32,000 bases of DNA from Corynebacterium glutamicum ATCC 13032 (GTDB taxonomy: Bacteria > Actinomycetota > Actinomycetes > Mycobacteriales > Mycobacteriaceae): NCBI RefSeq assembly GCF_000011325.1, contig NC_003450.3, positions 810,001 through 842,000 of the forward strand, in the 5' to 3' direction. The notes under the pieces were generated by a model that saw only the letters and a program-made list of their open reading frames with translations, ran no database searches and was not told the DNA's origin. Positions 11,291-31,513 of this stretch are shown one piece after another. Each line of letters begins with the position of its first letter. Position 1 is the first letter of the stretch. The position numbers were made by a program, and so were the translations under genes.

Positions 11291-12087
11291 GAACCTAAAC
11301 TCCAACACATCGGACATTTTGGATGCACAGGGAGGGTGCGTACCGAGTTTGTTCGATCGTGGGGGTTTACTTCCTCCACAACGCCGGGCAACCATGTATC
11401 GGCAGTGACCCAGGCGACGAGTCGGGCAGCCGTCGCCATCTCCGTGACGGGATCAGGAAAGGTGGGACCGTTGGGTTGCTGATTGATAATAGAGAGCCAA
11501 TGCGGATCGATATCGCAGCGATGCAGATCCACACACATCAAACACGGCCCCGATCGTGATCTCCGGCCCGGGCCGATGATGCCACGATTATCGACGATCG
11601 CGGCGCACAGATACGTCGGCGCATATTTGTGAAGCAGCGGGGATAGACGTTGGGAATGTGCGAGCTTGTTGAGAACCAAAATGTGGCTGGAGGGAAGCTC
11701 GAAAAACTCTCGAGGCGACTCATCGATGATCTGGGGTCTGGGAACAAAGCCGGAGGTTTCCAAAAGGAAGGAGGTGACGTCGACAAGCGAACCGTCCCCG
11801 AACAGCAACACCTGCGCCGCCGCCGATTCGCGGACCACACCGAATTCTAAAAGGTCCTCGAGCAAACTGCTCGCAGCGGTGGGTGCGAGGCCTGCAGTCG
11901 TGAGGTCGGCGATGACATCAACGATCGGTCGGGCGGTCCGCAGATTCCGCAGCACCGGGACGACTCGCGACGACAGCGATGGATCGATATTTAAGACGCC
12001 AGCGCGGGTGGCGTCGATGCCGAATTGAATCGCAGAATCCGGGCGGATCAGAACTTGGGCAGAGTTGGCTAAAGCGATGTGTGTCAT
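11287..12087 (-). CDS. hypothetical protein, divergent E1/ThiF-like or cyclodehydratase-docking-like fold (low-confidence family call)
   Basis: ATG at 12087 is preceded by GGGGGAAA. The TTG at 12105 in the ORF track is less likely. The glycine loop is degenerate (VLLFGDGSLVD) and a CxxC-type motif GPCLMCVDLHRC is present. The stop shares 4 nt (TTAG) with the uvrD2 stop. Confidence 0.65.
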   Translation of the reverse strand: MTHIALANSAQVLIRPDSAIQFGIDATRAGVLNIDPSLSSRVVPVLRNLRTARPIVDVIADLTTAGLAPTAASSLLEDLLEFGVVRESAAAQVLLFGDGSLVDVTSFLLETSGFVPRPQIIDESPREFFELPSSHILVLNKLAHSQRLSPLLHKYAPTYLCAAIVDNRGIIGPGRRSRSGPCLMCVDLHRCDIDPHWLSIINQQPNGPTFPDPVTEMATAARLVAWVTADTWLPGVVEEVNPHDRTNSVRTLPVHPKCPMCWSLGS

Positions 12088-12165
12088 CTGAAAAATTTCC
12101 CCCAAAACTTAATCGACACAGTTACTTCATCTGGCCTTATTTCATCACAGTTACAATCATCTGTC

Positions 12166-12672
12166 ATGCAGGAAAAGCCAGAGATGCCAGCGATTGAGGT
12201 CATCCGTTCAGCGAAACGCACCAAAACTGTTCAAGCTCGAATTGTGGACGGGCAAATCCAGGTGCGCATCCCTGCGAGGATGTCTAAAGCGGAGGAAGAA
12301 AAAGCGGTGGGGGAGATCGTCGCAAAGCTAAAGCGACGCACCCAATCGGCCGTCTCAAGCGACGCTGACCTGATTGAGCGCGCCCATAAGTTGAACAAGA
12401 CTGTGTTGGAGGGGCGGGCGCGGGTGGAAAGTATTCGGTGGGTGAGTAATCAGAAGGGGCGGTGGGGGTCGTGCACGGTGGCGACTGCGGAGATTCGGAT
12501 TTCGGATCGTTTAAAGCACGTGCCGGATTATGTGTTGGATGCGGTGTTGGTGCATGAGCTGACGCATACGTTTATTGCGGGGCATTCGGCGGAGTTTTGG
12601 GAGTGGGCAGACAAAACGCCCCTGGCAGAGAGGGCCAAGGGCTATTTGGAGGCGTATCAGCGGTGGGGCTGA
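12166..12672 (+). CDS. DUF45/YgjP-type (M48-like) metal-dependent hydrolase
   Basis: Contains WGSCTVATAEIRISDRL...VLVHELTHTF (HExxH). A TACAAT -10-like hexamer lies at 12152-12157. Alternative start ATG 12184 is preceded by AGGAAAAG. The upstream 29 codons of the track ORF overlap the divergent gene and are rejected. Confidence 0.8.
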   Translation: MQEKPEMPAIEVIRSAKRTKTVQARIVDGQIQVRIPARMSKAEEEKAVGEIVAKLKRRTQSAVSSDADLIERAHKLNKTVLEGRARVESIRWVSNQKGRWGSCTVATAEIRISDRLKHVPDYVLDAVLVHELTHTFIAGHSAEFWEWADKTPLAERAKGYLEAYQRWG

Positions 12673-12676
12673 AGGT

Positions 12677-14104
12677 TTAGTTCTTGTCGGAGGTTCCTTC
12701 AGAACCGTCGTCCTCGGAATCATCTTCGGAATCGTTTTTCTTCTCTGCCTCTTCCGCAAGCAGTTTTTCCAGGGCGGTGATTTCTGCGATGGGGTCGAAG
12801 TCTTCGCCGTCGGATTCGCCGAGGAGTGCGTCGATGAATTCGGCTGGTTTGTCGATATCTTCGGCGGTTGGGAGGAAGTCGGGGTGGTTCCAGACTGCGT
12901 CGCGGCGTTCTACCCCTACTGCGTTTTCGACTCGGCGCCACAGTTCGGCTGCTTCGGAGACCTTCGGTGCGCCGAGCTCAATGCCGACTACCTGGGAGAA
13001 TGCTTGTTCTGCGGATCCGCCGGTTGCGCGGCGGCGCTTCCAGGCTTCGTTCATGGCGTCGGTGGATGGGATGCGTTCGCTCAGGGCTTGGGTAACTACG
13101 ATGTCGACCCAGCCTTCGACGAGTGCGAGGAGAGTTTCCAGGCGGGATACTGCGTTGGCGTTGCGGGATCCGATGCGTGGGGACAGGTCCATACCTTGGA
13201 GTTCGTTCATCATTTCCTGGAGGCGTTCAGGATCTGGGTTGTCCATTTGGAAGTTGCCCATGGCCTCTTGGATGTGTGAGGTGTCGATTTCTAGGCCGAC
13301 GGCGTATTCCTCAACGGAGGAAACGAGGCGCTCGACAAGCCACGGCACGTGCTTGAAGAGGCGTTGGCGGGCGGCTTCGCGGGCACAGATGTAAACGAGC
13401 ATTTCTTGCGGTGCCACGTTGAGGCCTTTGGATGCTTCGGCGATGTTGCCGGGCAGGACGGCAGATACGCCGACTGGGGAGATAGGCAAACCGAAGTCAG
13501 AGCCGGTGAGGGTCTGCTTTGCGAGGTCGCCCAGCGCATTTCCTAATTGAACTCCGAAGTTCATCGAAGACATGGAGTTCATCAAAGAAGACATCGGGCC
13601 CATCATCTCGCGGGCTTCTTCAGGGAGGTTTTCTAATTGGGCTTTGTTCATTTGCTCCGCAACAGGGGAGACAAGACGCTTCCACACAGGCAGGGTGTTT
13701 TCTAACCAGTTTTCTGGATTCCACGCTTCGACGCGGTGCCCGGAAGTGGGGAGCTGGGTGGCGTTATCGAGCCAGAGTTCAGCAAGGCGAAGGGACTCTT
13801 CGACTGCTTCCTTCTCAGAATCCTTCACCGGCGCTACGCGACCAATCTGCTGGCGGGCGATGCGTGCTGCTAAATCATAATTAACCGGGCCTGCTGCTTC
13901 GGGGGAGTTCATCGAATCTCCCATTCCGGACAGCATCTGGCCGAACTGGTTTAAAATATCGCCTAATCCGCCGGGGCCACCAGCGCCACCTTGTCCTCCG
14001 AATCCGAAGTTGCCACCGAAAAGGCCGAATGGGTCGTTGTTGCGGTTTTTGTCATCGTCGTCATCGTTGTTGCCAAAAGAGAAACCAAAGCCATTAGAGT
14101 TCAT
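12677..14104 (-). CDS. DUF2342/zincin-like protein (Rv3195-type) with substituted HExxH site, Gly/Phe-rich N-terminus and acidic C-terminal tail
   Basis: Starts at ATG 14104 (MNSNGFGF...). The conserved block reads ICAREAARQRLFKHVPWLVERL, where the family normally has HExxH..QF..PWL. The gene is long and strongly biased, and the plus-strand ORFs across it are shadows. Confidence 0.8.
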   Translation of the reverse strand: MNSNGFGFSFGNNDDDDDKNRNNDPFGLFGGNFGFGGQGGAGGPGGLGDILNQFGQMLSGMGDSMNSPEAAGPVNYDLAARIARQQIGRVAPVKDSEKEAVEESLRLAELWLDNATQLPTSGHRVEAWNPENWLENTLPVWKRLVSPVAEQMNKAQLENLPEEAREMMGPMSSLMNSMSSMNFGVQLGNALGDLAKQTLTGSDFGLPISPVGVSAVLPGNIAEASKGLNVAPQEMLVYICAREAARQRLFKHVPWLVERLVSSVEEYAVGLEIDTSHIQEAMGNFQMDNPDPERLQEMMNELQGMDLSPRIGSRNANAVSRLETLLALVEGWVDIVVTQALSERIPSTDAMNEAWKRRRATGGSAEQAFSQVVGIELGAPKVSEAAELWRRVENAVGVERRDAVWNHPDFLPTAEDIDKPAEFIDALLGESDGEDFDPIAEITALEKLLAEEAEKKNDSEDDSEDDGSEGTSDKN

Positions 14105-14189
14105 ATTTACCAATCTACAAGGCAACTATTTCCTATTGCTACGATCCGAACAACGCTGTAAGCGAACACAGGTTGTAGGGTGGATATTC

Positions 14190-15242
14190 GTGAATCGCCG
14201 AATCAAGACTCTGACGTGGGGTGCTATCCCTTTGGTGCTGCTGGCATCGTTGGTAAGCATTGACCATATTCCGGGAACAAACATCAACTTGAGCGTGCCT
14301 TATGCCGCTGAAGGCCCAGGTCCTACGATCAATACGCTTGGTCAGGTCGACGGCGAGGATGTTGTGTCCATCAGTAGTGCTGATCTGGATGAGACCGAAG
14401 GTAACCTGAACATGACCACTGTGTCGGTTCGTTCCGGCATGACATTGTCGCAGGTAATTTCCCGATGGCTGTTTACCGATGACACAATCGTTCCCATCGA
14501 GCAGGTTTTCCCTCCCGGCCAATCCACCGAGGAAGTCGAAGAATCCAACCGCACCGCGTTCATCTCTTCGGAGTCTTCCGCAACGATCGCCGCGATGAAT
14601 TACCTCAACATTCCCGTCGAAGTTGAAGTTGCAGAAGTCCTCACCGACAGCGCCGCAACCGGAATTTTCGAACCCGGCGACAAACTTCTCAGCATCGACG
14701 GCACCGCAATCTCCACTCCCGGCGATGCACAAACCATCGTGCGATCGAAAGCTCCCGGCGATGAGATCACGATTTCCTACGAGAGAAACGATGCGGAATC
14801 TCAAGCAACCATCACTTTGAGGGAACACCCGGATGATTCTTCGGTGGCGTTGTTGGGTATTTCAATGTTGTCGGTGCCTTCGAGCGCGATTGAGGTTGAT
14901 TACAACTTGGAAGATATCGGTGGTCCGAGCGCTGGCATGATGTTTTCGTTGGCGGTCGTCGATAAGCTTTCGCCTGGCGCGCTGAATGGTGGCAAGTTTG
15001 TCGCTGGCACTGGCACCATCGCGGAGGACGGGTCGGTGGGCCCGATTGGCGGTATTGCGCACAAGGTGCGCGCTGCGGAGGACGCGGGCGCGGAAGTGTT
15101 TTTGAGCCCTGCGGACAATTGCGCGGAGGCGATGAGTGCGAAGCCTCAGGATATGACGATCTTGAAGGTGGATTCGTTGTCTCAGGCAATCGATCAGATG
15201 GCTGCCTACAACGAGGGCTCTGATTTCCAGACGTGTGGCTAG
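14190..15242 (+). CDS. membrane-anchored PDZ domain / Lon-like S16 serine protease (YlbL/Rv3194c type)
   Basis: GTG 14190 follows AGGGTGGA. Has an N-terminal TM helix (TWGAIPLVLLASLV), a PDZ-like region (FEPGDKLLSIDGTAISTPGDAQTIV), and a Lon catalytic region (GGPSAGMMFSLAVVDKL ... IGGIAHKVRAAEDAGA). Confidence 0.85.
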   Translation: MNRRIKTLTWGAIPLVLLASLVSIDHIPGTNINLSVPYAAEGPGPTINTLGQVDGEDVVSISSADLDETEGNLNMTTVSVRSGMTLSQVISRWLFTDDTIVPIEQVFPPGQSTEEVEESNRTAFISSESSATIAAMNYLNIPVEVEVAEVLTDSAATGIFEPGDKLLSIDGTAISTPGDAQTIVRSKAPGDEITISYERNDAESQATITLREHPDDSSVALLGISMLSVPSSAIEVDYNLEDIGGPSAGMMFSLAVVDKLSPGALNGGKFVAGTGTIAEDGSVGPIGGIAHKVRAAEDAGAEVFLSPADNCAEAMSAKPQDMTILKVDSLSQAIDQMAAYNEGSDFQTCG

Positions 15243-15916
15243 TTTTTAGACGCTGAGGTTTCTTCCGAGGACTCTTCAGTGTCCTTCGGTGTCGACAGCC
15301 CAAGTTCGTAGATGCGTTCCTCCGGATCGATTTTGTCGGAGGACACCATTTGCTGCAGCACTAGGCCTTGGTCATTATCAACGACCGTGATAATCGACAT
15401 CGTGCCAATCGTGGTCCAGCCCACAACCTTGGATCCGGAATCCTCAACCACGCGTGAGCTGCGCAGTTCCGTGAGCAGCTGCGTCGTGCTCGTGGCCTTC
15501 GACGCATTGTCAAAGAATTGGAATTGGCCAACTTCCGGCCCGTTGCACGCGAAGGAATCCTCGACCCCTGACGGGTCGCAGGTTTCGAATTGCTCAAAAA
15601 GCTCGACGGGCGCGAGCGAGGAGAAAGCTTTATAGGCGACTTCAACGTCCTTGGTCATACGAGGTTTGCTTGTCGACGTCTCCCCACTCTCTTTCGTCGA
15701 CGTTTCGGCAGTGCTTGACTCTGTCGTTTCAATTACTGAAGACGAAGCAGTGGTAGCAGGAGTTGTCGTTGCTTCCGTTGTTGTCGCAGGAGTTGTTTCT
15801 GCCGTGGATTCAGTGGAAGTTTCGGTGGATCCGCCGCCCGTACATGCAGCTAAAAGAGGAATGAGCGCCACTAATCCCAGTGCAACGCGGACATGCTTGT
15901 GCGGGGTGGACGCCAC
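15239..15916 (-). CDS. lipoprotein with Thr/Glu/Ser-rich linker
   Basis: GTG start 8 nt after GAGGAG. The signal peptide has the lipobox LLAAC|TGG. It is followed by about 70 aa of T/E/S/A low complexity and then a globular domain. The stop shares CTAG with the convergent protease gene. Confidence 0.75.
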   Translation of the reverse strand: MASTPHKHVRVALGLVALIPLLAACTGGGSTETSTESTAETTPATTTEATTTPATTASSSVIETTESSTAETSTKESGETSTSKPRMTKDVEVAYKAFSSLAPVELFEQFETCDPSGVEDSFACNGPEVGQFQFFDNASKATSTTQLLTELRSSRVVEDSGSKVVGWTTIGTMSIITVVDNDQGLVLQQMVSSDKIDPEERIYELGLSTPKDTEESSEETSASKN

Positions 15917-16615: not shown

Positions 16616-19573
16616 TTGTCGACTGGTCTCACACCTCCTCCCCAACCGATCAAGCGACCTCCCAAGGCGGTGACATGGATCTTCGCCATTATCGCGTTGG
16701 TCATTCTCATCGCCCCAATGAGTGTTGGCTTCTATACCGACTGGCTTTGGTTCGGTGAAGTCGATTTCCGAGGCGTTTTCAGCAAGGTTATTGTCACTCG
16801 CATTGTTCTCTTTGTGATCTTTGCGCTAATTGCTGGGTTTGTCACATGGCTTGCTGGTTATTTTGTGACAAAACTTCGACCTGATGAGATGTCGGCGTTT
16901 GATACCCAGTCGCCTGTGTATCAGTACCGTCAGATGATCGAAAACAGCCTTCGTCGCGTTATGGTGATCATTCCAATTTTCGTCGCGTTGCTGGCTGGCC
17001 TAATTGGTCAGCGTTCGTGGCGCACCGTTCAAATGTGGCTGAATGGCCAGGACTTTGGCGTTTCGGATCAGCAGTTCGGCTTGGATTATGGATTCTACGC
17101 GTTTGATCTTCCGATGCTTCGCCTCATCGCTGACTCACTGTCGATGATGTTGATCGTTGCTTTCCTGATCGCACTCGTTGGCCATTACCTCATGGGTGGC
17201 ATTCGCGCTGGAAACCAGATGACGGGCCAGAAGTCCTTTGTATCCCGTGGTGCGCGCACTCAGCTTGCGGTAACTGCTGGTCTGTGGATGCTTGTTAAGG
17301 TCGCTGGCTACTGGCTGGATCGCTATGACCTGCTGACTAAGGAAAACTCAACCTTCACAGGTGCAAGCTACACCGACATCAATGCACAGCTGCCAGCGAA
17401 GATCATCCTGCTGGTTATCGCATTGTTCGTGGCGATCGCGTTCTTCTCTGCGATCTTCCTGAAGGACCTCCGCATCCCAGGTCTTGCCGTAGTTCTGATG
17501 CTGCTGAGCTCTGTGATCATTGGTGCTGCTTGGCCTTTGATGCTGGAGCGTTTCTCCGTTCAGCCAAACCGTGCAGAAAAAGAAGCCGAGTACATTTCTC
17601 GAAACATTGAATCGACTCGCTATGCCTATGGCATCACCGATGAAGATGTCACCTACGAGGAAAACTGGGGAGCAGGGGAGACCACCAATGAAGAAGTCGC
17701 CGCTGATTCTGCAACGATTTCTAACATTCGTCTGCTGGATCCACAGATCCTGTCACCAACCTTCACCCAGCAACAGCAGCTGCGAAACTTCTACGGTTTC
17801 CCAGACCAGCTGGCGATGGACCGCTTTGAAGTAGATGGCAAACTCCGCGACTTTGTTGTGGCAGCACGTGAGCTCGATCCAAACGCCCTGCAGCAAAACC
17901 AGCAGGACTGGATTAACCGTCACACTGTTTATACCCACGGCAACGGCTTCATTGCAGCTCAAGCAAACCAGGTGGATGAGGTCGCCCGCGACGTCGGATC
18001 CACTCGTGGTGGTTACCCTGTCTACACCGTCTCTGATTTGCAGTCGAATGCTCGTGCTGCAGAAAGCGAAGATGCTGAGGAGCTTGGCATCAAGGTTGAT
18101 GAGCCTCGTGTGTACTACGGACCACTGATTGCTTCTGCGACTGATGGTGCTGACTACGCAATTGTCGGTGACACCGGCGATGGCCCAGTCGAGTACGACA
18201 CTGACACCTCCAGCTACACCTACGAAGGTGCTGGCGGCGTGGACATTGGAAACATGGTCAACCGTGCGATGTTTGCATTGCGCTACCAGGAAATGAACAT
18301 GCTCCTGTCTGATCGTGTTGGTTCCGAATCCAAGATCCTATTTGAGCGCGATCCTCGTTCCCGTGTGGAAAAGGTTGCACCTTGGTTGACCACTGACTCC
18401 AAGACCTACCCAACTGTGATTGATGGTCGCATCAAGTGGATCGTCGATGGCTACACCACCTTGGATAGTCTTCCGTACTCCACGCGCACCTCACTGACGG
18501 AAGCGACTCAGGATGCTGTCATGCCTGACGGCACCCCACAGCCACTGATCACAGATAGGGTCGGTTACATCCGCAACTCCGTGAAGGCTGTTGTTGATGC
18601 GTACGACGGAACTGTTGAACTCTACGAATTCGACACCGAAGATCCTGTTCTGAAGGCATGGCGTGGCGTGTTCCCAGACACCGTGAAGGACGGGTCGGAG
18701 ATTTCCGATGAGCTTCGCGCACACCTGCGTTACCCAGAAGATTTGTTCAAGGTCCAGCGTGACATGCTGGCCAAGTACAACGTTGATGATTCTGGAACAT
18801 TCTTCACCAACGATGCGTTCTGGTCTGTCCCAGGTGACCCAACTGCAGCGGAGGGCCGCCAGGAACTTAAGCAGCCTCCTTACTACGTGGTGGCAGCAGA
18901 CCCAGAGACCGGTGAGTCCAGCTTCCAGCTGATCACCCCGTTCCGTGGACTTCAGCGCGAGTACCTCTCTGCACACATGTCTGCGTCGTCTGATCCAGTT
19001 ACCTACGGTGAAATCACTGTTCGTGTGCTGCCTACCGATTCTGTGACCCAGGGTCCAAAGCAGGCCCAGGATGCGATGATGTCATCTGACCAGGTTGCTC
19101 AGGACCAAACACTGTGGCGTGGATCGAACGATCTGCACAACGGAAACCTGTTGACCTTGCCAGTTGGTGGCGGAGAGATCCTCTACGTTGAGCCGATTTA
19201 CTCGCAGCGCAAGGATCAGGCATCGGCCTTCCCGAAGCTTCTGCGCGTGCTGGTCTTCTACAAGGGTCAGGTTGGTTACGCACCAACGATCGCTGAAGCC
19301 CTATCGCAGGTCGGCATTGATCCGAAGGAAGCGCAGGACATCGAAGAGGTAGATGGCACCGCTACGACGCCATCGACTGATGAGACTGACACTGACACTG
19401 ATCAGCCTGCAACCGAAACCCCAACTGCACCAGTGAGTGAGGCGGAAGGAATCGCGGCCATCAACGATGCGTTGAGCAACCTTGAAGCTGCTCGCGATAG
19501 CTCTTTCGAAGAGTATGGTCGTGCACTCGATGCGCTTGATCGTGCCGTCGATAGCTACCAGTCCGCACAGTAG
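16616..19573 (+). CDS. UPF0182 family integral membrane protein (Rv3193c type)
   Basis: 985 aa, TTG start 7 nt after AAGGA. Has about 7 N-terminal TM helices, a large extracytoplasmic domain and an acidic T/D/E-rich tail. A strong terminator follows. Confidence 0.85.
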   Translation: MSTGLTPPPQPIKRPPKAVTWIFAIIALVILIAPMSVGFYTDWLWFGEVDFRGVFSKVIVTRIVLFVIFALIAGFVTWLAGYFVTKLRPDEMSAFDTQSPVYQYRQMIENSLRRVMVIIPIFVALLAGLIGQRSWRTVQMWLNGQDFGVSDQQFGLDYGFYAFDLPMLRLIADSLSMMLIVAFLIALVGHYLMGGIRAGNQMTGQKSFVSRGARTQLAVTAGLWMLVKVAGYWLDRYDLLTKENSTFTGASYTDINAQLPAKIILLVIALFVAIAFFSAIFLKDLRIPGLAVVLMLLSSVIIGAAWPLMLERFSVQPNRAEKEAEYISRNIESTRYAYGITDEDVTYEENWGAGETTNEEVAADSATISNIRLLDPQILSPTFTQQQQLRNFYGFPDQLAMDRFEVDGKLRDFVVAARELDPNALQQNQQDWINRHTVYTHGNGFIAAQANQVDEVARDVGSTRGGYPVYTVSDLQSNARAAESEDAEELGIKVDEPRVYYGPLIASATDGADYAIVGDTGDGPVEYDTDTSSYTYEGAGGVDIGNMVNRAMFALRYQEMNMLLSDRVGSESKILFERDPRSRVEKVAPWLTTDSKTYPTVIDGRIKWIVDGYTTLDSLPYSTRTSLTEATQDAVMPDGTPQPLITDRVGYIRNSVKAVVDAYDGTVELYEFDTEDPVLKAWRGVFPDTVKDGSEISDELRAHLRYPEDLFKVQRDMLAKYNVDDSGTFFTNDAFWSVPGDPTAAEGRQELKQPPYYVVAADPETGESSFQLITPFRGLQREYLSAHMSASSDPVTYGEITVRVLPTDSVTQGPKQAQDAMMSSDQVAQDQTLWRGSNDLHNGNLLTLPVGGGEILYVEPIYSQRKDQASAFPKLLRVLVFYKGQVGYAPTIAEALSQVGIDPKEAQDIEEVDGTATTPSTDETDTDTDQPATETPTAPVSEAEGIAAINDALSNLEAARDSSFEEYGRALDALDRAVDSYQSAQ

Positions 19574-22666: not shown

Positions 22667-22743
22667 CGCGGGGTGGAGCAGCTCGGTAGCTCGCTGGGCT
22701 CATAACCCAGAGGTCGTAGGTTCGAATCCTGCCCCCGCTACTA
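22667..22743 (+). tRNA. initiator tRNA-Met (anticodon CAT)
   Basis: The cloverleaf was folded by eye. Acceptor is CGCGGGG/CCCCGCT with a C1-U72 mismatch; D arm GAGC/GCTC; anticodon stem CTGGG/CCCAG with the three G:C pairs typical of initiators; CAT at 22701-22703; T arm GTAGG-TTCGAAT-CCTGC. The discriminator A is at 22740. The next 3 nt are CTA, so CCA is not encoded. Confidence 0.95.
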
Positions 22744-22751
22744 AGTTAAAA

Positions 22752-22783
22752 ATCCCCTCAACTTCGGTTGGGGGGATTTTTTC
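22752..22783. terminator. bidirectional rho-independent terminator after the tRNA and the convergent membrane-protein gene
   Basis: CCCCTCAAC-ttcg-GTTGGGGGG is a 9-bp stem with one G-U pair. It is flanked by AAAAAT on the 5' side and ATTTTTT on the 3' side. Confidence 0.75.
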
Positions 22784-23496: not shown

Positions 23497-23538
23497 GCAA
23501 AAGTTACCTAGAGCGTGGCATTATGTAGTGCATTGCCC
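23497..23538 (+). repeat. upstream motif copy A (shared with 27165-27203)
   Basis: GCAAAAGTTACCTAGAGCGTGGCATTATGTAGTGCATTGCCC lies 34 nt upstream of the protease start. The 12-mer CAAAAGTTACCT is identical in copy B, and the GCGTG..AT.ATGT..GC.AT.GCCC blocks are colinear. Confidence 0.4.
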
Positions 23539-23571
23539 TTTTGCTGTTATGAAAGTGAACTAAAGATATCT

Positions 23572-24636
23572 ATGCGCAGACCGGTCTCACGCCGCGCCAT
23601 TTTTGCAACATCTGTTTTGGTTGCGGGGGTGAGCATCATGTCACCTTCGGCCAACGCAGCTGAGGCTCCGGCATCGGAATGGGTGAATACGACAGCGATC
23701 GTAGATCAAGCGAATGCTCAGTTGTCGCAGTTTGGCGTGAGTCTTGACCGAAGTGCAGCAGAACTTTTTGATGATCAGGCAAACTCCCAAATTGATGCAG
23801 CGCTTTCACCGTATGCCGATAAGGTTCCAACCTCTGGCGGCCAGGTAGTCGAGCAAAGTCTTCAGGTTGTGGAGCAGGAAGTTCAAAAGGCACTGCCCAA
23901 CTATGAAATCCGTACCGATCTGCAATCCCAGGTGATGGGTGCAACTCTAGGAGAGGTGCTGCACCGAGTTCCTGGATCATGGTTTGATGCGCCAGCAGTT
24001 CCTGAAGAATCCAGGATTGTAGAGGAACAGGGTAAATCCCTGTATGGGCCCGGTACCCCGATCTATCTCAACGGAAATTCCATGTGCACGCTTGCGGTGA
24101 CTGGAACTGATGCAGATGGGCGCAAGATCGGTATCACTGCAGGTCACTGTGGAAAATCGGGCGATGCAGTCCGTTCGGCTGACTCCTTCTGGGTCGGCGA
24201 TACCGGAACAGTGGTGTACAACGCGCCTAACGCTGACTACTCCGTGATCGAGTTCGGTTCCAATGCAGAGTTGAGCAATACCTACAACGGTGTCACCGCG
24301 AATGCTGTCGGCGGTGGCGTGACTAATGGCCAAGAAGTATGCAAAAACGGAGTTGCTACTGGCTACACCTGTGGTTTGGTGTGGACTGCTGATGAGCGCA
24401 TGACGATGTCTCAGGTGTGTGCGGGTCGTGGTGATTCGGGTGCTCCGCTGATTGCAGATGGTCGTGTGGTTGGTCTTGTATCTGGTGGTGTAATTCCTGA
24501 TTACAACCTGGCATGCGCCACTCCGTTGCAGGGACCTTTCTTCATGCCAACGCTGTCAGTGAACATGGATACTGTCCTAACTGATTTGGATTCGCAGGAT
24601 CTTCCCGGTCGAGGTTTTCAGCCAACTGCTGGATAG
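23572..24636 (+). CDS. secreted chymotrypsin-fold (S1, alpha-lytic/streptogrisin-like) serine protease with N-terminal pro-region
   Basis: The signal peptide is MRRPVSRRAIFATSVLVAGVSIMSPSANA|AEAP (RR-containing). The catalytic triad context is ITAGHCG, NADYSVIEF and CAGRGDSGAPLI, with paired Cys typical of S1 proteases. A terminator follows. Confidence 0.85.
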   Translation: MRRPVSRRAIFATSVLVAGVSIMSPSANAAEAPASEWVNTTAIVDQANAQLSQFGVSLDRSAAELFDDQANSQIDAALSPYADKVPTSGGQVVEQSLQVVEQEVQKALPNYEIRTDLQSQVMGATLGEVLHRVPGSWFDAPAVPEESRIVEEQGKSLYGPGTPIYLNGNSMCTLAVTGTDADGRKIGITAGHCGKSGDAVRSADSFWVGDTGTVVYNAPNADYSVIEFGSNAELSNTYNGVTANAVGGGVTNGQEVCKNGVATGYTCGLVWTADERMTMSQVCAGRGDSGAPLIADGRVVGLVSGGVIPDYNLACATPLQGPFFMPTLSVNMDTVLTDLDSQDLPGRGFQPTAG

Positions 24637-24643
24637 AATTTAG

Positions 24644-24682
24644 AAAATCCGCCGTTCCACACAAGGAACGGCGGATTTTTTG
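24644..24682 (+). terminator. rho-independent terminator of the protease gene
   Basis: AAAATCCGCCGTTCC-acacaa-GGAACGGCGGATTTT is a 15-bp perfect stem followed by a T run. Confidence 0.85.
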
Positions 24683-24839
24683 ATGACTAAGTGAGTTTGG
24701 ATGCGGAAGATTTGGGCTATTTCCATAAATCGAACCAGGTGACCGAGAGTTAGAAGCCTGGAGAGGACGGTTCGCTTGGAATCTTTCCCCTTGTTCGAGG
24801 GTCCTGCCTTTTATCTGGGTGGTGGAGTTATGAAAAACT

Positions 24840-26467
24840 TGCGTATTAGACCAAGAGCCGCTTTTTTCGGGGAGTCTTTGGTCTCCATTGACTCTGTGTC
24901 GGAGCCGAAAAAAGAGCTTGGATCGCTTGTTTAAATCTAAGCTTCGTTTAGTTCTTGCCGGGCACTTTTTGAACGCGGATCCATCGGCGATGGCTTCAAT
25001 TTTCGATGTGGATTTTGAATCTGGTGTTATTAGTTCCGTCATTAGGGCACGTGAGCTTACGTTGGATGACTTCTCTTTGGGCTGTGTTACGCCTTTGGTT
25101 GCTTTTGTGGGTTGGGAGTTTCCTCAAGGGGTTGAGCCGTGTTTACCGGTGAAGGTTGAGCAGTCGATCATTTATCCGCGTACTAGTGAGGGGGTAGGTG
25201 CTTCTCAAGGTGAAGGGATGGGTGATGCTGATTTTGAAGGGTTCTCTGGTGCGTGGTGTGCTGGTCTGGAGCTCTACCTGGCTCTGAAGCTGGGTGCTCG
25301 TGTGACATGTCAGATGGGGTATTCGCTGGAAGGTCTCACTCGTATGGTCAGCCCTCGATGTCTTTACGGTCTGCGCTTCGGCAAATGGTAATTGATCGAT
25401 CTGCTGCTAAAGAGATTTTCGGTAGAGGGTCTTTGGAAGAGCTCACGATTAAGATTGCGACGAATGCTGGTTATGGGAAGCTCTCTCAAGATGTTGCTCC
25501 TCGTTCAGGCTGGAATGCTTTCGAGGAGACTATGGAGTCTATTGGTGGTTCTGCGGTTACTAGTCCTTATCATGCTGCCATGACTACAAGCTTGGTTCGT
25601 GCCTTGCTTTTGGCTATCTCAAATGAGATTGAGATTCTTAGTGTTACTACTGATGGTTTCATTACCAGGGAATCTAACATTGAGGCTCTTGAGTGTTGTG
25701 GCATTGCTGATGTATTTCGTGATTCGCGTGGTGCGCTGACAGGTGACCGGACGGTGTGGGAGATCAAGCATCTTCAAGATGATTTGCTGAATTTCACAAC
25801 TAGCGCCAATATCTCACCTTCATATGAAGGTGGAGGATAGCGAAGGTCGAGTTATCGAAAAGGGTGGTGTGTGCGCTAAAGGTGGGTTGAAACCCCCAAA
25901 AATATAAAGCGTGGGAGTTTAGAAGAGCGGGTGTGGTTTCGCCACGCCGTGCTTTCACACATAGGTAAAATTAATAATCCTTATCATAGTTTTCCTTCGT
26001 TTCGTGAGCTGTCGTGCTCTCACAACCGTGTTGACTTCGTCAAAGGATCACATTCACCGTAGATTTCTCTGGATTACGATTTTCAACGGATGTCATTGCA
26101 AGAATTTGTAGTTGTTGATTTTATTGATGGTTTTGAAGTAGTGGGTTTCAAGACTGTTGCGTGGGACTCTGTGAAGGACTACCAACGTGCTTGTTATATT
26201 GCTGATCATCGTCCGGGTACCACTGTGGTCCAGATCGTCCTAGGGGGTTGATTACGGATCGAACACGATTGGACTCATTGGTTTGAGAGATTTAACAGTG
26301 AGGAACATCGTCGTATTCGTACTGCCGAGTCTGTGCGCTTGACTAAATTGGTTGCTGGCCATAAAGAGGTCAGGTGGAATCTTCCAGTGTTGTCTTCAAA
26401 AGCTAGTGTGGTTCAGGTCTTTGGGTTACGGGGATTTCACTCGAGCACAGTGGGACCATATGAGTAA
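24840..26467 (+). pseudogene. relic of a protein-primed / primer-independent-type family B DNA polymerase (multiple frameshifts and in-frame stops)
   Basis: Motif B KIATNAGYG (K-x3-N-x2-Y-G) lies at 25451-25477. SPYHAAMTTSLVRALL follows, then motif C-like SVTTDGFIT (TTDG at 25646-25657). Upstream, in another frame, is AWCAGLELYLALKLGARVTCQMGYSLEG. Downstream, 25907-26467 is a single frame broken by TAG 26060-26062 and TGA 26249-26251. At least three frame changes are needed to join the pieces. Confidence 0.55.
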
Positions 26468-27164
26468 AAGCGAGGCGTAAGGACGTTCTCAAGGGTATTG
26501 ACATTGGTGGTGGATGCTTTGATTGCTCAAACTTGATGTGTATCTCTTGACATTAGAGGCTGTTAAAAAAGATCATGAAGATTTTCTTTGGCGTTTAGCG
26601 CTGTGTGTAATCTTTGGTTTTGAATTGTGGGTCACCGATTCATCAGTTGAAGTTTTTTACTGATGGAACGGTATTTTTATGTTGATGAGATTCTGCTAGT
26701 GCGGGAAATATGCAAGATCTGACAAATAAGTACGGGGGCATCGCAAGACTTTTAATTACTATTTAATTGGCACCTTGTAGATACGTGAGTCGGCGCTGAT
26801 GGACGTGTCCGTTACTTTGGCTTTTCGCAGAAGCCGAGATTGTGGCCGGTGTGACAGCCTATATTGCGCTAGATATTTTGGTGCTGCATACGATGATCAC
26901 GTCGCTATGACGCAACGCCATTCGTGATCTGTGTTCTGGAACTTATGCGTGATTTTCCTGCACGAGCAATCAAAGACTGCACCTAGCTGGAGTTCATAGC
27001 TGGAAATGAAGAAACCATTTGCTTCTGAAGTATGTCCGCACTCGCTTAGCTGATGTCATCCAATGTAGAGAAGTTCAAAAGCTGAAGCAGGGGAGCACAA
27101 TTCTACTTCGCTACAGGAAAATCTCCATTCAAGCATCCAGCACACAAGGGCTAAAAAGTCAGTA

Positions 27165-27203
27165 GCCAAAAGTTACCTTTCTCGCGTGATATGTGCCATG
27201 CCC
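27165..27203 (+). repeat. upstream motif copy B (shared with 23497-23538)
   Basis: GCCAAAAGTTACCTTTCTCGCGTGATATGTGCCATGCCC lies about 110 nt upstream of the LGFP-protein start. Confidence 0.4.
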
Positions 27204-27311
27204 GGAACGGGGGTAAAAATACACGTAAAACAATTTTATGCAAAGAACTTATAGTGTTTTCAGGTTAGGGTCAGATCATTCACATCAACTAGTAACGAAA
27301 GGGTTATGTGA

Positions 27312-28895: not shown

Positions 28896-28924
28896 CATAA
28901 GGAATGGAATAGGAGAATTGCGGC

Positions 28925-29356
28925 ATGTATTCCGACAAGCTGATTCTCTTGTTCCTTTCTGAGCAGGATTCAAGCTATGAATGCTGCGTAGGTTTATTAG
29001 ATGGCTCAGATGGACTTGATTATATTGAAAAGCTTCTGAAGGGTAGGAAGCTGAAGAACCATTTTCTTGAATGGGAAGATATTAACAAGGCTGATGTTGC
29101 TCGTGAAGAAATATATAAAGGGCAATTGGTGCATCTGGTGTTTGTGACGGCTCTTTCCACGCCTGGTGAAATTTCTTTTGTTTTTCCAGGTCAATCTCTT
29201 ATGAGTGCAACACTCGAAGAAGACTTTGCTGCGCTTGTGCTCGAAGAGGAGCGCACATCATTTAGACCTGAACTGTCTCACCTGTGGTCACTCCCCGTAG
29301 GGTGGGTAGCTCCGGGGCTTGAGGGTTTCGTGGAGCGTAATTCCGAGGCAGCTTGA
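28925..29356 (+). CDS. small acidic cytoplasmic protein of unknown function (candidate partner of the upstream secreted protein)
   Basis: 143 aa. A strong AGGAGA RBS at 28910-28915 lies 9 nt before the ATG. The gene starts 29 nt after the upstream stop with no terminator between. It has no signal peptide. Confidence 0.6.
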   Translation: MYSDKLILLFLSEQDSSYECCVGLLDGSDGLDYIEKLLKGRKLKNHFLEWEDINKADVAREEIYKGQLVHLVFVTALSTPGEISFVFPGQSLMSATLEEDFAALVLEEERTSFRPELSHLWSLPVGWVAPGLEGFVERNSEAA

Positions 29357-29629
29357 ACCACCGCTTTCTGAGCCGGAAACCTCACGCGATAATGGCATCG
29401 AAAGACAATTGATTCATGCTGAATTCAGAGATCTACAACCTGTTGCGATAGTCCATCTCACGATGTGCCTAGTGTATGAGCTAATAAAGCTTAGACCTCT
29501 CTGCATCCCTGATAGCACTTTCGTAGTTATCAGATGCTATTTTGAGCTAGAAGTGGATCTTATCTACCAGGGTGAAAGCCAAACAACGCTGTACCTTTCT
29601 TTGCTGATGGGTGCAACGAAGACGGAGTT

Positions 29630-30142
29630 ATGATGAAGGAACGACGAATCAAGACTTTGGCAGCCTTAGTAATCTGCGGCCTGACTGTTTCAGGATGCGG
29701 CAATTATTTGGGAGACATTAATGTCAAAGGGCGCGCTGGTTTTTCAGTATCTGAAGCAGGTGATCTCATTGTTCGTGTACAACCATGTGGGTTGCCTATT
29801 GATACAGTAGACATGGCCGGCCCAATGCCACAGGATCAACCACCCCAAGCAAACCCGGTGTATCTTCAATTGAGTGATCCCGACGGTCGTACTGATCCTT
29901 TCATAGTAGATCCTGAAAACTTAGACCCGAGCTGGGCAATTATAGCAGGTGACGGCCTGCCAACAGATCCTGATGCACTCATCATCGTTAATGCGCATGT
30001 CGAGGGTGAGAGTACTCAAACCTCACAGGTGTCAGCGTATGTTAGGGATGTTCAGGGGTTGAGGACAGATCAAATCTATGTAGGTACCCTTGAAAGCTCA
30101 CGAATAGTTGACGAGAGTACTTTTCTTCATTGTCGCAAGTAG
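29630..30142 (+). CDS. lipoprotein of unknown function
   Basis: The signal peptide MMKERRIKTLAALVICGLTVSGC|GNY carries the lipobox L-(T)V-S-G-C. A GACGGAG RBS is present. The mature part is Pro/Asp-rich. Confidence 0.65.
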   Translation: MMKERRIKTLAALVICGLTVSGCGNYLGDINVKGRAGFSVSEAGDLIVRVQPCGLPIDTVDMAGPMPQDQPPQANPVYLQLSDPDGRTDPFIVDPENLDPSWAIIAGDGLPTDPDALIIVNAHVEGESTQTSQVSAYVRDVQGLRTDQIYVGTLESSRIVDESTFLHCRK

Positions 30143-30332
30143 CGTGTGGATCACTGCTGACGTTGAAGGTCAGGTTGGATTGACGCGTGCAAGTGACGGA
30201 GCGATCTCAATCGTGGTCCAACCATGTGGCCTTGAGATAGACATGGTTGCGATTAAAGGACTTCTCATCTTGCAGACTATTGAGGATTTTCACCAGTGCA
30301 GCACACCCTTGTTGATGAGAGTAGCGATGTAG
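30108..30332 (+). pseudogene. truncated paralogue of the N-terminal module of the preceding lipoprotein
   Basis: ADVEGQVGLTRASDGAISIVVQPCGLEIDMVAIKG parallels INVKGRAGFSVSEAGDLIVRVQPCGLPIDTVDMAG. Shared nucleotide strings are CAACCATGTGG (29780-29790 / 30219-30229) and TAGACATGG. The lipobox Cys is replaced (SSV) and the reading frame ends after about 70 codons. Confidence 0.45.
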
Positions 30333-30366
30333 TTTAGTGTCGCGTAAGTCTTTTTCAATCCTGAAA

Positions 30367-30406
30367 ACAACACCCCGTACTGAATTTATGCAGTACGGGG
30401 TGTTGT
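30367..30406. terminator. strong stem-loop between convergent genes (bidirectional terminator candidate)
   Basis: ACAACACCCCGTACTG-aatttatg-CAGTACGGGGTGTTGT is a perfect 16-bp stem. There is no clear T run on the plus side. Confidence 0.65.
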
Positions 30407-30433
30407 CTGCGTGAATACCGATTTGTGTCATAT

Positions 30434-30745
30434 CTAGAGCACTATGCGTGGAGGGCGGATCGCTAAGCCTCGTTCAACATATGCATAGGACAACGGTTGA
30501 TAGCCGTTGTCCGTATGGAATCCACCGTTGAAAATGTATTCCATAAAAATTGTGCCTTCATTACTGAGAAAATCCGTATCGCGATTGAGTATCTCGTTGA
30601 CCATGTCGATTGAGTCTTTAGTTGAAAAAATCTCTGCGAGCTGTTCAAGCTGATCGTAATGAGGTACAACCCTACCGTTGTTGATCTCCTTAAATTGCTC
30701 GCGGATCATGATCTCTTGTCGAGGAGTGGTGCACATATCAATCAT
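30434..30745 (-). CDS. hypothetical protein, possibly a 3' gene fragment
   Basis: 103-aa ORF from ATG 30745. The same frame stays open for a further 42 codons upstream (to about 30871) with no ATG, GTG or TTG, suggesting the N-terminal part was lost. No recognisable motif. Confidence 0.4.
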   Translation of the reverse strand: MIDMCTTPRQEIMIREQFKEINNGRVVPHYDQLEQLAEIFSTKDSIDMVNEILNRDTDFLSNEGTIFMEYIFNGGFHTDNGYQPLSYAYVERGLAIRPPRIVL

Positions 30746-31513
30746 GTCTTGGAGGTCGCGCTCGTTGAGTGTCGTCGGTTGCTGTAGTTCTTGTTCCGGC
30801 TTTGGTGCTGACGATGTAGCTATGTGTGTAGCTTCTGTGCGTCTTTTTTTCAGCTCTGCGTTCTTTCCAGTTATTTATAGATCTAGGAATCACTACTTCA
30901 AACAGGTGATTGACGCCCTTTTAGGTTAATTGATTTAGTGACGTCACCTATTACTGAAGTCGCAAATGAATTGAGTTTTGATGGGCTTTTAACTAGACGC
31001 GGTTCTTTTACTAGCTCTTCCAGCGTTCCATTTTGGTGTCGCACGCCCCAGAACTTAAGGAATCGTTAGTGACTTTGTTGCCGTTTTTTTGGTGATTTTT
31101 GAGACGTAACCTTCAATCTTTTGAAGATTCGAATTATTTTCGAGAGGCATGCATAAAAAATATATCGTATTGTCGATATTATTGGGATGTTCAGACATAT
31201 TCGGAGCCGAAATATACGTTGGAGGCCAAGACTCGGATTGGCGGGGTCGGTTTTGGTCAGATATGACAGTCAGCCTGCAATTACTATCTGGAACTCTAGA
31301 ATCAGGGTCCTCTCAGGATCGTATATAAGAGGCTGAAATGCTTCAATTATACCTCTCTGAGAAATTTGATCCTTATAAAACGGCTCCTGTGCTCTTTGTA
31401 CTTTCTGGGTAGTGGGGTTGAGGAAAATTCGACCAGGTGGCCGAAAGATCCACCCCACCCCAGACGTCGGTCAAATAGGACGGTATCCGGAAAACCAAGC
31501 AAAACCCGGGAGT

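Follow-up and report, generated by a model that had tools for sequence, protein, structure and literature searches.

A probable pipolin polymerase relic near tRNA-fMet in Corynebacterium glutamicum and a candidate −1 frameshift signal in related genes

Primer-independent family B DNA polymerases (piPolBs), the polymerases of pipolins, are distinguished by SxTTDG instead of YxDTDS and by KH-X8-KTRG instead of KxY (PMC5695915). The genera listed as pipolin hosts include Staphylococcus and Pseudosulfitobacter, the Staphylococcus epidermidis plasmid pSE-12228-03 is cited as a pipolin, and pipolins have already been reported in Corynebacterium (PMC11551731). The enzymes are of interest as primer-free polymerases and as tools for DNA amplification. 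Here, we describe a relic in Corynebacterium glutamicum ATCC 13032 that is very probably a dead piPolB gene of a pipolin; it lies in a stretch of 32,000 nucleotides of contig NC_003450.3 (positions 810,001 to 842,000), which was analysed as a whole and is referred to below as the window.

The intact relatives of this relic have the same motif set (ExoI–III, DxxSxYPS, KxxxNSxYG, SxTTDG, and KH-X8-xTRG) as the piPolBs of Escherichia coli 3-373-03_S1_C2 and S. epidermidis pSE-12228-03 (PMC5695915, PMC11551731). Like pipolins, they belong to small elements that also encode a tyrosine integrase, an excisionase-like helix-turn-helix (HTH) protein, MobC, and a relaxase, situated in tRNA genes and flanked by direct repeats, and their taxon spread is that of the published piPolB tree (Actinobacteria with Clostridia, Staphylococcus, Vibrio, and alphaproteobacteria). 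Unlike known pipolins, the window copy is a pseudogene without a surrounding element. Unlike known piPolBs, members of the actinobacterial and clostridial branch replace the Lys of KTRG by S, T, I, or V, and some of the Corynebacterium genes are spread over two frames that meet at a slippery heptamer. The relic itself is ordinary, since both pipolins in Corynebacterium and truncated piPolBs are already known; the candidate frameshift is the novel part.

The relic and its intact relatives

Positions 24906–26480 on the forward strand are, as read from the sequence, a pseudogene of a family of proteins of ~1000 amino acids (aa). When the intact 1036-aa homologue P0017 was compared with the window by tblastn, it matched positions 25331–26425 with 54.6% identity (E 2.6e-139) and, in another frame, positions 24972–25331 and 26397–26468. 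A family hidden Markov model (HMM) built from 34 intact homologues (995 positions) and run on six-frame fragments of the whole window recovered seven colinear pieces in two reading frames, with E values from 3e-86 to 2e-8 (i-E 0.011 for the weakest piece, 218–243). These pieces cover HMM positions 218–243, 469–590, 589–754, 762–815, 820–878, 886–940, and 940–965, and no further match was found elsewhere in the 32-kb window in any of the six frames. The stitched relic scored 748.8 bits, and its residues 23–520 aligned with residues ~466–963 of ~1000-aa proteins at 56–60% identity. This homology is far above chance; a blastn search of the relic region against plasmids and phages gave no match. 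The parts of the relic are as follows.

24906–24980, forward strand: ExoII remnant (..SLDRLFKSKLRLVLAGHFLNAD); P0059 residues 251–273 match 24915–24980 (65%, E 3.7e-4), and the HMM match at 218–243 is weak (i-E 0.011).
24981–25334, forward strand: motif A tail PSAMAS and the segment between motifs A and B (HMM 469–590, E 7.6e-56).
25346–25837, forward strand: motifs B and C and the KxY-equivalent strand (HMM 589–754, E 3.3e-86), out of frame with the neighbouring pieces through indels near 25340 and in 25838–25862.
25838–25862, forward strand: decay patch with TAG 25838 and an indel or insertion that returns to the frame of 24906–25334, placed by three-frame translation against intact homologues and by the HMM frame change.
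25863–25907, forward strand: putative end of the ancestral open reading frame (ORF) 1 (GGVCAKGGLKPPKI, then stop), with the heptamer C_CCA_AAA at 25895–25901 and the stop TAA at 25905–25907; the heptamer and codons are common to 13 other distinct homologue junctions.
25909–25960, forward strand: predicted hairpin 7 nt 3' of the heptamer, with basal arms 25909–25916 and 25953–25960 (RNAalifold consensus stem).
25901–26396, forward strand: putative ancestral ORF2 for the C-terminal ~230 aa, in the −1 frame (HMM 762–815, E 3.8e-18; 820–878, E 2.4e-13; 886–940, E 1.9e-12).
26397–26480, forward strand: last recognizable C-terminal piece (KLVWFRSLGYGDFTRAQWDHMSK), ending with TAA 26478–26480 (HMM 940–965, E 1.6e-8; P0017 residues 983–1006, 75%).

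The N-terminal part has suffered most. About 255 codons N-terminal to the ExoII remnant, including ExoI, are gone, and the remnant itself (LVLAGHFLNAD, 24948–24980) is fused in frame to PSAMAS (24981 onward), the tail of motif A (DxQSAY/PSAMAS), where intact homologues read DHDIQSAYPSAMAS. This fusion marks an internal deletion of ~225 codons, with which ExoIII and the motif A aspartate were lost. The exonuclease domain is therefore mostly missing, as the preliminary description of this region had suggested, but it is not simply truncated. Downstream, AWCAGLELYLALKLGARVTCQMGYSLEG (25251–25334) and GQPSMSLRSALRQMV (25346–25390) are in different frames, an indel near 25340 having changed the frame, and SPYHAAMTTSLVRALL follows at 25562–25609. 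Motif B is KIATNAGYG at 25451–25477 (peptide KIATNAGYGK, 25451–25480; K-x3-N-x2-Y-G), and motif C is SVTTDG at 25640–25657 (peptide LSVTTDGFIT, 25637–25666), the Asp of which follows the motif B Lys by 67 residues. The KH-X8-TTSA at 25766–25807 (peptide KH-LQDDLLNF-TTSAN, 25766–25810) is a decayed xTRG. Hallmark residues have thus drifted from NS to NA in motif B and from TRG to TSA. The ORF2 of the relic is interrupted by TAG 26060–26062 and TGA 26249–26251, and the frame changes again near 26397; a possible weak tail in another frame, recognized by eye alone, extends to ~26521.

Much of this had been anticipated. All the peptides quoted in the preliminary description were found at their places, as were the motif B spacing, the 67-residue distance to motif C, and the stops TAG 26060 and TGA 26249, to which TAG 25838 is now added. 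The speculation that LNFTTSAN is a decayed KTRG-type motif is borne out by the intact homologues, which read KH-X8-(S/T)TRG there. The proposed range of 24840–26467 contained a real relic, but its limits are now refined to ~24906–26477, followed by TAA, and besides the frame changes already listed there are others, the full set lying near 25340, in 25838–25862, at 25901, and near 26397.

In total, the relic carries at least three indels and three in-frame stops (TAG 25838, TAG 26060, and TGA 26249). With ExoI, ExoIII, and the motif A aspartate lost, and with these indels and stops, it is predicted to be unable to make a polymerase. All the lesions recur in a metagenomic or strain variant (97.5% identity over 5.3 kb), which has one extra stop, and the pseudogene is therefore older than the divergence of these lineages. 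The 157-aa ORF at 24918–25391, from a contig with an exact match to the window (BX927147, roughly 811–843 kb), is annotated as a C. glutamicum hypothetical protein; the heavily studied industrial strain ATCC 13032 would thus carry the remains of a self-replicating element in genes annotated as hypothetical.

The intact homologues contain FDTEF (ExoI), HF/YxNADL (ExoII), EYGVNDA (ExoIII), DHDIQSAYPS (motif A), KVATNSVYG (motif B), SVTTDG (motif C), and KH-X8-(S/T)TRG. All three exonuclease motifs are present and polymerase motifs A, B, and C occur in order, and of these the relic keeps the ExoII remnant, the tail of motif A, and motifs B and C. Motif C reads S[VAC]TTDG in 13 of the 13 homologues examined, from Actinobacteria to Vibrio, the first catalytic Asp being replaced by Thr. 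KH-X8-KTRG occurs in several proteobacterial homologues (e.g., L078 and L082) and RTRG in others. The family HMM gave 183–271 bits with the piPolB-type proteins of Staphylococcus, Vibrio, Rhizobiales, and Polaromonas (pSE-12228-03, 241 bits; Vibrio mytili, 183; Rhizobiales homologue, 271). The relic alone matched the pSE-12228-03 piPolB with E 2e-22, a Rhizobiales homologue with E 2.5e-28, and a Vibrio homologue with E 7e-18. With P0017 as the query, the best tblastn match among plasmids was the pSE-12228-03 polymerase (E 3e-33), followed by Pseudosulfitobacter and Fusobacterium plasmids, and the blastp alignment with that polymerase had 27% identity over ~570 residues (E 1e-40).

About 140 clusters (90% identity) match the family at E <= 0.001, and among 1.84 billion proteins it has 1843 representatives at 50% identity, 671 of them at E <= 1e-30; nearly all members are unannotated, one UniRef entry being a "DNA-directed DNA polymerase". 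The earlier reading of the region as a degraded family B DNA polymerase of a mobile-element type can be narrowed to piPolB. The search for intact orthologues that had been proposed yielded ~1000-aa homologues with polymerase motifs, one of which (P0017) has a predicted PolB fold, and no unrelated family.

tRNA-fMet and the attachment sites of related elements

In relatives of the relic, piPolB is preceded by a tyrosine integrase gene on the opposite strand and by genes for a ~160-aa protein and for an HTH_17 excisionase-like protein. Two or three small ORFs come after it, and then the genes for MobC and a relaxase; some of the elements continue with cargo such as an arsenic-resistance cluster. 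Four of these elements could be delimited by direct repeats, and they are given here with the tRNA gene of the window.

Window, 22667–22741, forward strand: initiator tRNA-Met gene (CAT; ARAGORN, Rfam tRNA 60.9 bits), the sole tRNA gene in the window.
L009, Corynebacterium amycolatum DSM 6922: 35-bp repeat, the 3' part of tRNA-fMet (7720–7754 and 19526–19560); complete element of 11.8 kb.
L069, Corynebacterium kroppenstedtii metagenome-assembled genome (MAG): 41-bp repeat of the same tRNA-fMet; decayed element of 5.7 kb (9494–15304).
L015, Trueperella pyogenes MAG: 44-bp repeat, tRNA-Arg; element of ~8.2 kb.
L036, Corynebacterium nasicanis: 41-bp repeat, tRNA-His; element of ~13.2 kb.

We take the tRNA-Met of the window to be the initiator from its CGCGGGG 5' end and GGG/CCC anticodon stem. 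Its sequence is identical to that of the tRNA-fMet of C. amycolatum DSM 6922, where the element carries an integrase, piPolB, MobC, and a relaxase, with the distal repeat adjoining the integrase. In the C. kroppenstedtii MAG, piPolB has been cut to profile positions ~590–990 and is further frameshifted; this is a second, independent decayed pipolin at tRNA-fMet. tRNA-fMet is a recurrent pipolin attachment site in Corynebacterium, decay there has precedent, and this tRNA can be added to the documented attachment sites of Corynebacterium pipolins. Because relatives both use tRNA-fMet and decay there, it is likely that the window holds a fossil element. An ancestor of C. glutamicum would have acquired a pipolin at the 3' end of its initiator tRNA-Met gene. 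The element would then have decayed, its integrase, excisionase, mobilization genes, and distal attachment (att) repeat being lost or replaced by other low-GC cargo, and the polymerase gene would have been reduced to an ExoII scrap fused to the region from the motif A tail to near the C-terminus.

The surroundings of the relic are partly consistent with this scenario. To the left of tRNA-fMet lie pdxS/pdxT-type core genes with ~57% GC, and from 22742 to ~31513 the sequence forms one continuous block with 47% GC, the right edge of which is the start of Inositol_P-family genes (which may encode HisN-type phosphatases). The relic begins 2.2 kb from the 3' end of the tRNA and has the same 47% GC as the rest of this island.

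Several observations weigh against decay in place. No second copy of the tRNA 3' end was detected in the window (blastn-short; 23-mer with three mismatches), and no remnants of integrase, excisionase, MobC, or relaxase genes were found there in a tblastn search with 22 neighbour proteins of the related loci L001, L002, and L004 (nothing below E 0.05). The non-coding intervals 24637–24906, 26481–27311, and 30746–31513 matched none of the related loci at either the nucleotide or the translated level. piPolB is oriented towards the tRNA in all four delimited relatives but away from it in the window, and a secreted protease gene and an SdpI-like gene stand between tRNA-fMet and the relic. With the opposite orientation, no repeat, and no element genes, decay in situ needs an added rearrangement or a differently organized element. 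Thus, of the fossil element at a tRNA gene that the preliminary description had envisaged, the link to tRNA-fMet is backed by two Corynebacterium loci, but an integrase, an att repeat, and any other pipolin gene are missing from the window; likewise, the element borders it had asked for are present as direct repeats in C. amycolatum and C. kroppenstedtii but not here.

The same observations, together with the variability of the right part of the island among C. glutamicum strains, favour the alternative that the relic lies near tRNA-fMet by accident, the island having come from other elements and the fragment having been imported broken or moved by rearrangement. Against such an accident, the very same tRNA-fMet is the repeat-bounded site of both an intact and a decayed piPolB element in two other Corynebacterium species, and the relic is close to the tRNA 3' end within a continuous low-GC block. 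We regard an accidental position as unlikely, although it deserves to be taken seriously, and we infer that a pipolin probably decayed in situ at tRNA-fMet, with rearrangement.

A candidate −1 frameshift in Corynebacterium piPolB genes

In a group of Corynebacterium relatives, piPolB is divided between two frames at one and the same place. A −1 frame change at HMM positions 763–765 was found in L033 and L043 (Corynebacterium spp.), L034 (C. macginleyi), L028 (C. falsenii), and L042, and the same change occurs in six loci fetched for their ~800–850-aa proteins (L093–L098, including C. auriscanis CP168259) and in six metagenome contigs. At least eight of the split loci have no other interruption in either part. 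The following junctions were compared.

L033, 12466–12605: split junction.
L093, 4413–4552: split junction.
L094, 5151–5290: split junction.
L095, 4360–4499: split junction.
L096, 5367–5506: split junction.
L097, 5355–5494: split junction.
L098, 3691–3830: split junction.
L028, 13609–13748: split junction.
Window, 25895–25960: junction of the relic.

At each junction, C_CCA_AAA lies in the 0 frame at the Pro-Lys codons of G-L-K-x-P-K, with a 0-frame stop two or seven codons later. The heptamer is present in all 14 distinct split junctions (window included), the flanks of which vary, and in none of the 22 one-ORF junctions. Read in the −1 frame from the heptamer, the protein continues as ...PK-S-(V/I)-x-R-G-S-x-E-E-R-x-W-F, which matches one-ORF proteins without a gap (e.g., GLKVPEEVERGTVAERRWF). 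In the databases, 17 protein clusters end 1–20 residues after this PK, and when metagenomes were scanned for the junction pattern, seven of the 55 matches were piPolB and the others were chance matches. In E. coli, heptamers of the V_VV.A_AA.R class, which includes C_CC.A_AA.A, were the most efficient, and C_CC.A_AA.G reached 54% with a strong stimulator (Sharma et al., PMC4066793).

A potential stimulator is present downstream. Each split sequence, folded alone, forms a hairpin 7 nt downstream of the heptamer (−21 to −38 kcal/mol) with the same basal stem, which RNAalifold resolves as 8 bp, and the z-scores of the five sequences tested were −2.6 to −3.5. Of the stem cells, 96.2% were paired versus 87.8 ± 1.8% in shuffles (0 of 500 as high), and slid controls gave 20–64%. 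Two stem pairs covary (CG to UA in one, and CG to AU, GC, or GU in the other) at synonymous third positions of Arg/Ser and Gly/Leu codons. At the eight stem positions, the split genes have a mean pairing of 7.7/8 versus 4.2/8 in one-ORF relatives. The hairpin of the window has one of its eight basal pairs broken (−20.9 kcal/mol, z −2.59). Rfam contained no family for the hairpin, and the Shine–Dalgarno-like AAGG/GGTGG upstream in split genes does not discriminate, being also present in one-ORF relatives, where it encodes conserved residues.

ORF2 has no start codon at a constant position and is under purifying selection. In four loci, the −1 frame contains none of the codons ATG, GTG, and TTG between its stop upstream of the site and the 45th codon beyond it, and in two further loci the first start codon is at +36 codons. 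ORF2 proteins are 41–79% identical across seven split lineages, with a ratio of nonsynonymous to synonymous substitution rates (dN/dS) of 0.15–0.40, similar to that of the adjacent ORF1 region, at dS values from 0.9 to saturation. Such constraint at high dS implies that the two-frame arrangement is old and that both parts are translated. In a rough neighbour-joining tree of low resolution, split and one-ORF genes were interspersed; either the signal has been gained or lost repeatedly or the tree is unresolved.

The main rival to programmed frameshifting is that the two parts are independently translated genes. Three loci have an ORF2 start at +1 or +2 (ATG in L094, GTG in L095 and L042), from which independent initiation is possible, and gene callers annotate a separate ORF2. 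The stem arms also overlap conserved codons, for R-G and L-S-R, and one-ORF relatives with the same residues pair at 5–7 of the eight positions; moreover, the sample comprises only 13–14 distinct sequences, some of them close relatives. These points count against a programmed event, but they are opposed by the six loci whose ORF2 has no early start codon, by the conservation of the protein from the first −1 codon in an indel-free match to one-ORF proteins, and by a heptamer that is invariant among variable flanks and restricted to the split genes. Two other ways of explaining the recurrent change without programming also meet objections: pseudogenes are difficult to reconcile with the ORF2 dN/dS over synonymously saturated lineages, and assembly errors with a pattern that recurs in complete genomes and independent assemblies. 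Efficient transcriptional slippage would need a longer run than the four A's present here. Taking these non-programmed explanations together, we consider them improbable, and a lineage of Corynebacterium pipolins seems, with good probability, to make its piPolB via a programmed −1 ribosomal frameshift at C_CCA_AAA with the hairpin.

Because the window keeps the heptamer, the stop, and the hairpin, one of the "shifts" in the relic was inherited and is not a product of decay: the frame change at 25901 looks ancestral, a piece of inherited architecture and not damage. The shift near 25840 in the preliminary description is accordingly real but consists of two events, the decay patch and the −1 change at 25901 that is common to intact relatives. 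The C. glutamicum relic would then preserve a fossil of the frameshift signal.

Normal decoding would end two or seven codons beyond the heptamer and yield a product of ~800–850 aa, and frameshifting would add the C-terminal ~230 aa. In phi29 DNA polymerase, the thumb follows KxY. Here the slip site follows the xTRG strand, which corresponds to KxY in the palm, by ~20 residues, and by analogy the 0-frame product may lack the thumb and the C-terminal helical region. By further analogy with dnaX tau/gamma and IS3 OrfA/OrfAB, the ratio of the two forms would set the amount of full polymerase or supply a second, truncated activity. dnaX and IS3/IS911 OrfAB likewise combine an X_XXY_YYZ heptamer that puts AAA in the A site with a stable hairpin 7 nt further on and a 0-frame stop soon after, and likewise obtain two products from one replication or mobile-element gene, and, as in IS3, the frameshift product would be a long fusion. 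Unlike those systems, the heptamer here is C_CCA_AAA and not A_AAA_AAG, the gene is a family B polymerase, and the case is known from sequence alone.

A frameshift signal in piPolB genes is apparently undescribed. In the literature, we found no full-text link of piPolB or pipolins to ribosomal frameshifting; the word "frameshift" is absent from PMC11551731 and is used in PMC5695915 in an unrelated sense only. If the frameshift is real, the ~800-aa database entries of this lineage are incomplete proteins, expression of the full enzyme first requires that its sequence be rebuilt across the slip site, and the short and long forms point to a regulation of replication in pipolins that has not been considered.

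Other frame disruptions were noted in these genes. In L038 (Tessaracoccus), there is a frame change near, not at, the heptamer position and without the heptamer, and it was treated as an unrelated lesion. In the decayed C. kroppenstedtii element, the heptamer is mutated (ACCCCCCAATGG) and the frame change is +1, not −1. Metagenome copies of C. amycolatum type are called as proteins of 701 and 324 aa (L001 4380–4430; also L002 and L003), because one base has been lost within the GGS(V)VTSP codons, which lie between motifs B and C; the same product is found on 11 contigs. This split is at a site other than the heptamer and has no slippery sequence, and it probably reflects a genuine lesion in a single circulating strain.

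Other polymerase families and further observations

The preliminary description also allowed for an origin of the relic in a protein-primed PolB, such as those of casposons, linear plasmids, or tectivirus-like phages, and the structure prediction might at first seem to support this. An AlphaFold2 model of P0017, the homologue and not the relic (predicted local distance difference test, pLDDT, 79.9; predicted template modelling score, pTM, 0.75), was searched against the PDB with Foldseek, and the top match was phi29 DNA polymerase (2ex3_A, E 1.2e-11, template modelling score 0.63 on the phi29 chain). All 50 of the matches listed were family B DNA polymerases, archaeal and eukaryotic ones coming after phi29, and 171 matches had E <= 0.001. 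The sole Pfam family touched was also DNA_pol_B_2 (PF03175), of organellar and viral type, which matched 15 of the 34 homologues (best E 5.2e-6). The family thus shares with phi29 polymerase and other protein-primed PolBs the fold, Kx3NSxYG, and carriage by mobile elements.

In other respects, the two differ clearly. The family HMM gave −1.9 and −3.2 bits with the phi29 and Bam35 polymerases, compared with 183–241 bits for the Staphylococcus, Vibrio, and alphaproteobacterial piPolB-type proteins; the relic did not match either polymerase, and P0017 matched no phage record at E <= 10. Motif C of the family is TTDG and not DTDS, and xTRG stands in place of KxY; SVTTDG is specific to piPolB, as is the KH-X8-KTRG motif (PMC5695915), which the family has in the form KH-X8-xTRG. 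The proteins are ~450 residues longer than phi29 polymerase, with N- and C-terminal extensions, and the neighbours of the genes are those of pipolins, with no gene for a terminal protein, Cas1, or a capsid.

Some results detract from a secure family call. In the actinobacterial and clostridial branch, the sequence is KH-X8-(S/T/I/V)TRG, so that the first Lys of KTRG is replaced; Pfam matched none of the window pieces, the stitched relic, or full-length P0017; and PDB sequence searches with a single protein or a profile gave chance matches only. NCBIfam gave no match. Among the PHROG families, 11768 "DNA polymerase" matched P0055 (E 1.9e-12) and the stitched relic over the motif B/C segment (E 0.0059). 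Of the frameshift-tolerant searches that had been recommended, the six-frame HMM and tblastn recovered the colinear pieces, and PF03175 matched homologues but no window piece. At the level of the tools used, protein-primed alternatives are excluded and the family is assigned to piPolB; a protein-primed origin for the relic is, in our estimation, very improbable. That the window copy is still a working gene, read through several recoding events, is scarcely credible: one frame change does coincide with the conserved heptamer and the short ORFs are annotated as hypothetical proteins, but the N-terminal ~255 codons and ~225 internal codons, including ExoI, ExoIII, and the motif A aspartate, have gone, three in-frame stops and at least three further indels occur where relatives are continuous, and the near-identical strain has yet another stop.

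Decay of piPolB genes seems to be common. The C. falsenii gene is interrupted at profile position 292 by ~1.3 kb (L028 10897–12206) with ORFs of 112 and 298 aa that, by eye, resemble IS3-family OrfA and OrfB, and the piPolB of Ornithinimicrobium sp. INDO-MA30-4 (L057, the same as L004; 9977–12589) is a decayed copy in four frames without its N-terminus. Other copies are nearly identical across species. The 1036-aa piPolB of C. kroppenstedtii subsp. demodicis (L006) and that of C. amycolatum DSM 6922 (L009 10001–13111) are each 100% identical to P0017 in the best aligned segment, and those of C. tuberculostearicum and Corynebacterium sp. HMSC04H06 (L007 and L008) are 98% identical to it, which points to very recent transfer of a P0017-type pipolin between these Corynebacterium species.

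Besides the relic, the low-GC island of the window encodes the SdpI-like membrane protein, a secreted protein with weak similarity to trypsin, an LGFP-repeat protein, and several ORFs without matches. Its right part (28900–31513; compared with L085 14440–20474) differs among C. glutamicum strains and is therefore a variable region: at the place of the small ORFs and the lipoprotein gene of ATCC 13032, GCA_013867915.1 encodes a 565-aa protein and a KAP-family NTPase. The only island gene with a homologue in a related locus is that of the trypsin-like protein (window 23515–24636), which is 45% identical to a homologue at 1591–2244 of the C. kroppenstedtii locus L069 (E 3e-50). That homologue is ~7 kb outside the repeat-bounded pipolin remnant, and both a conserved neighbourhood and coincidence are possible. 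The idea that the island genes are pipolin cargo was rejected, as this sole homologue lies outside the element repeats. A 166-aa ORF on the reverse strand (24542–25042) is probably spurious, judging alone from its overlap with the end of the protease gene and the start of the relic. Directly 3' of tRNA-fMet, at 22748–22781, a GC-rich inverted repeat followed by a T-run (CCCCTCAACTTCGGTTGGGGGGATTTTTT) resembles a tRNA terminator, and equivalent hairpins lie 3' of the tRNA in the C. amycolatum (L009) and C. kroppenstedtii (L069) loci.

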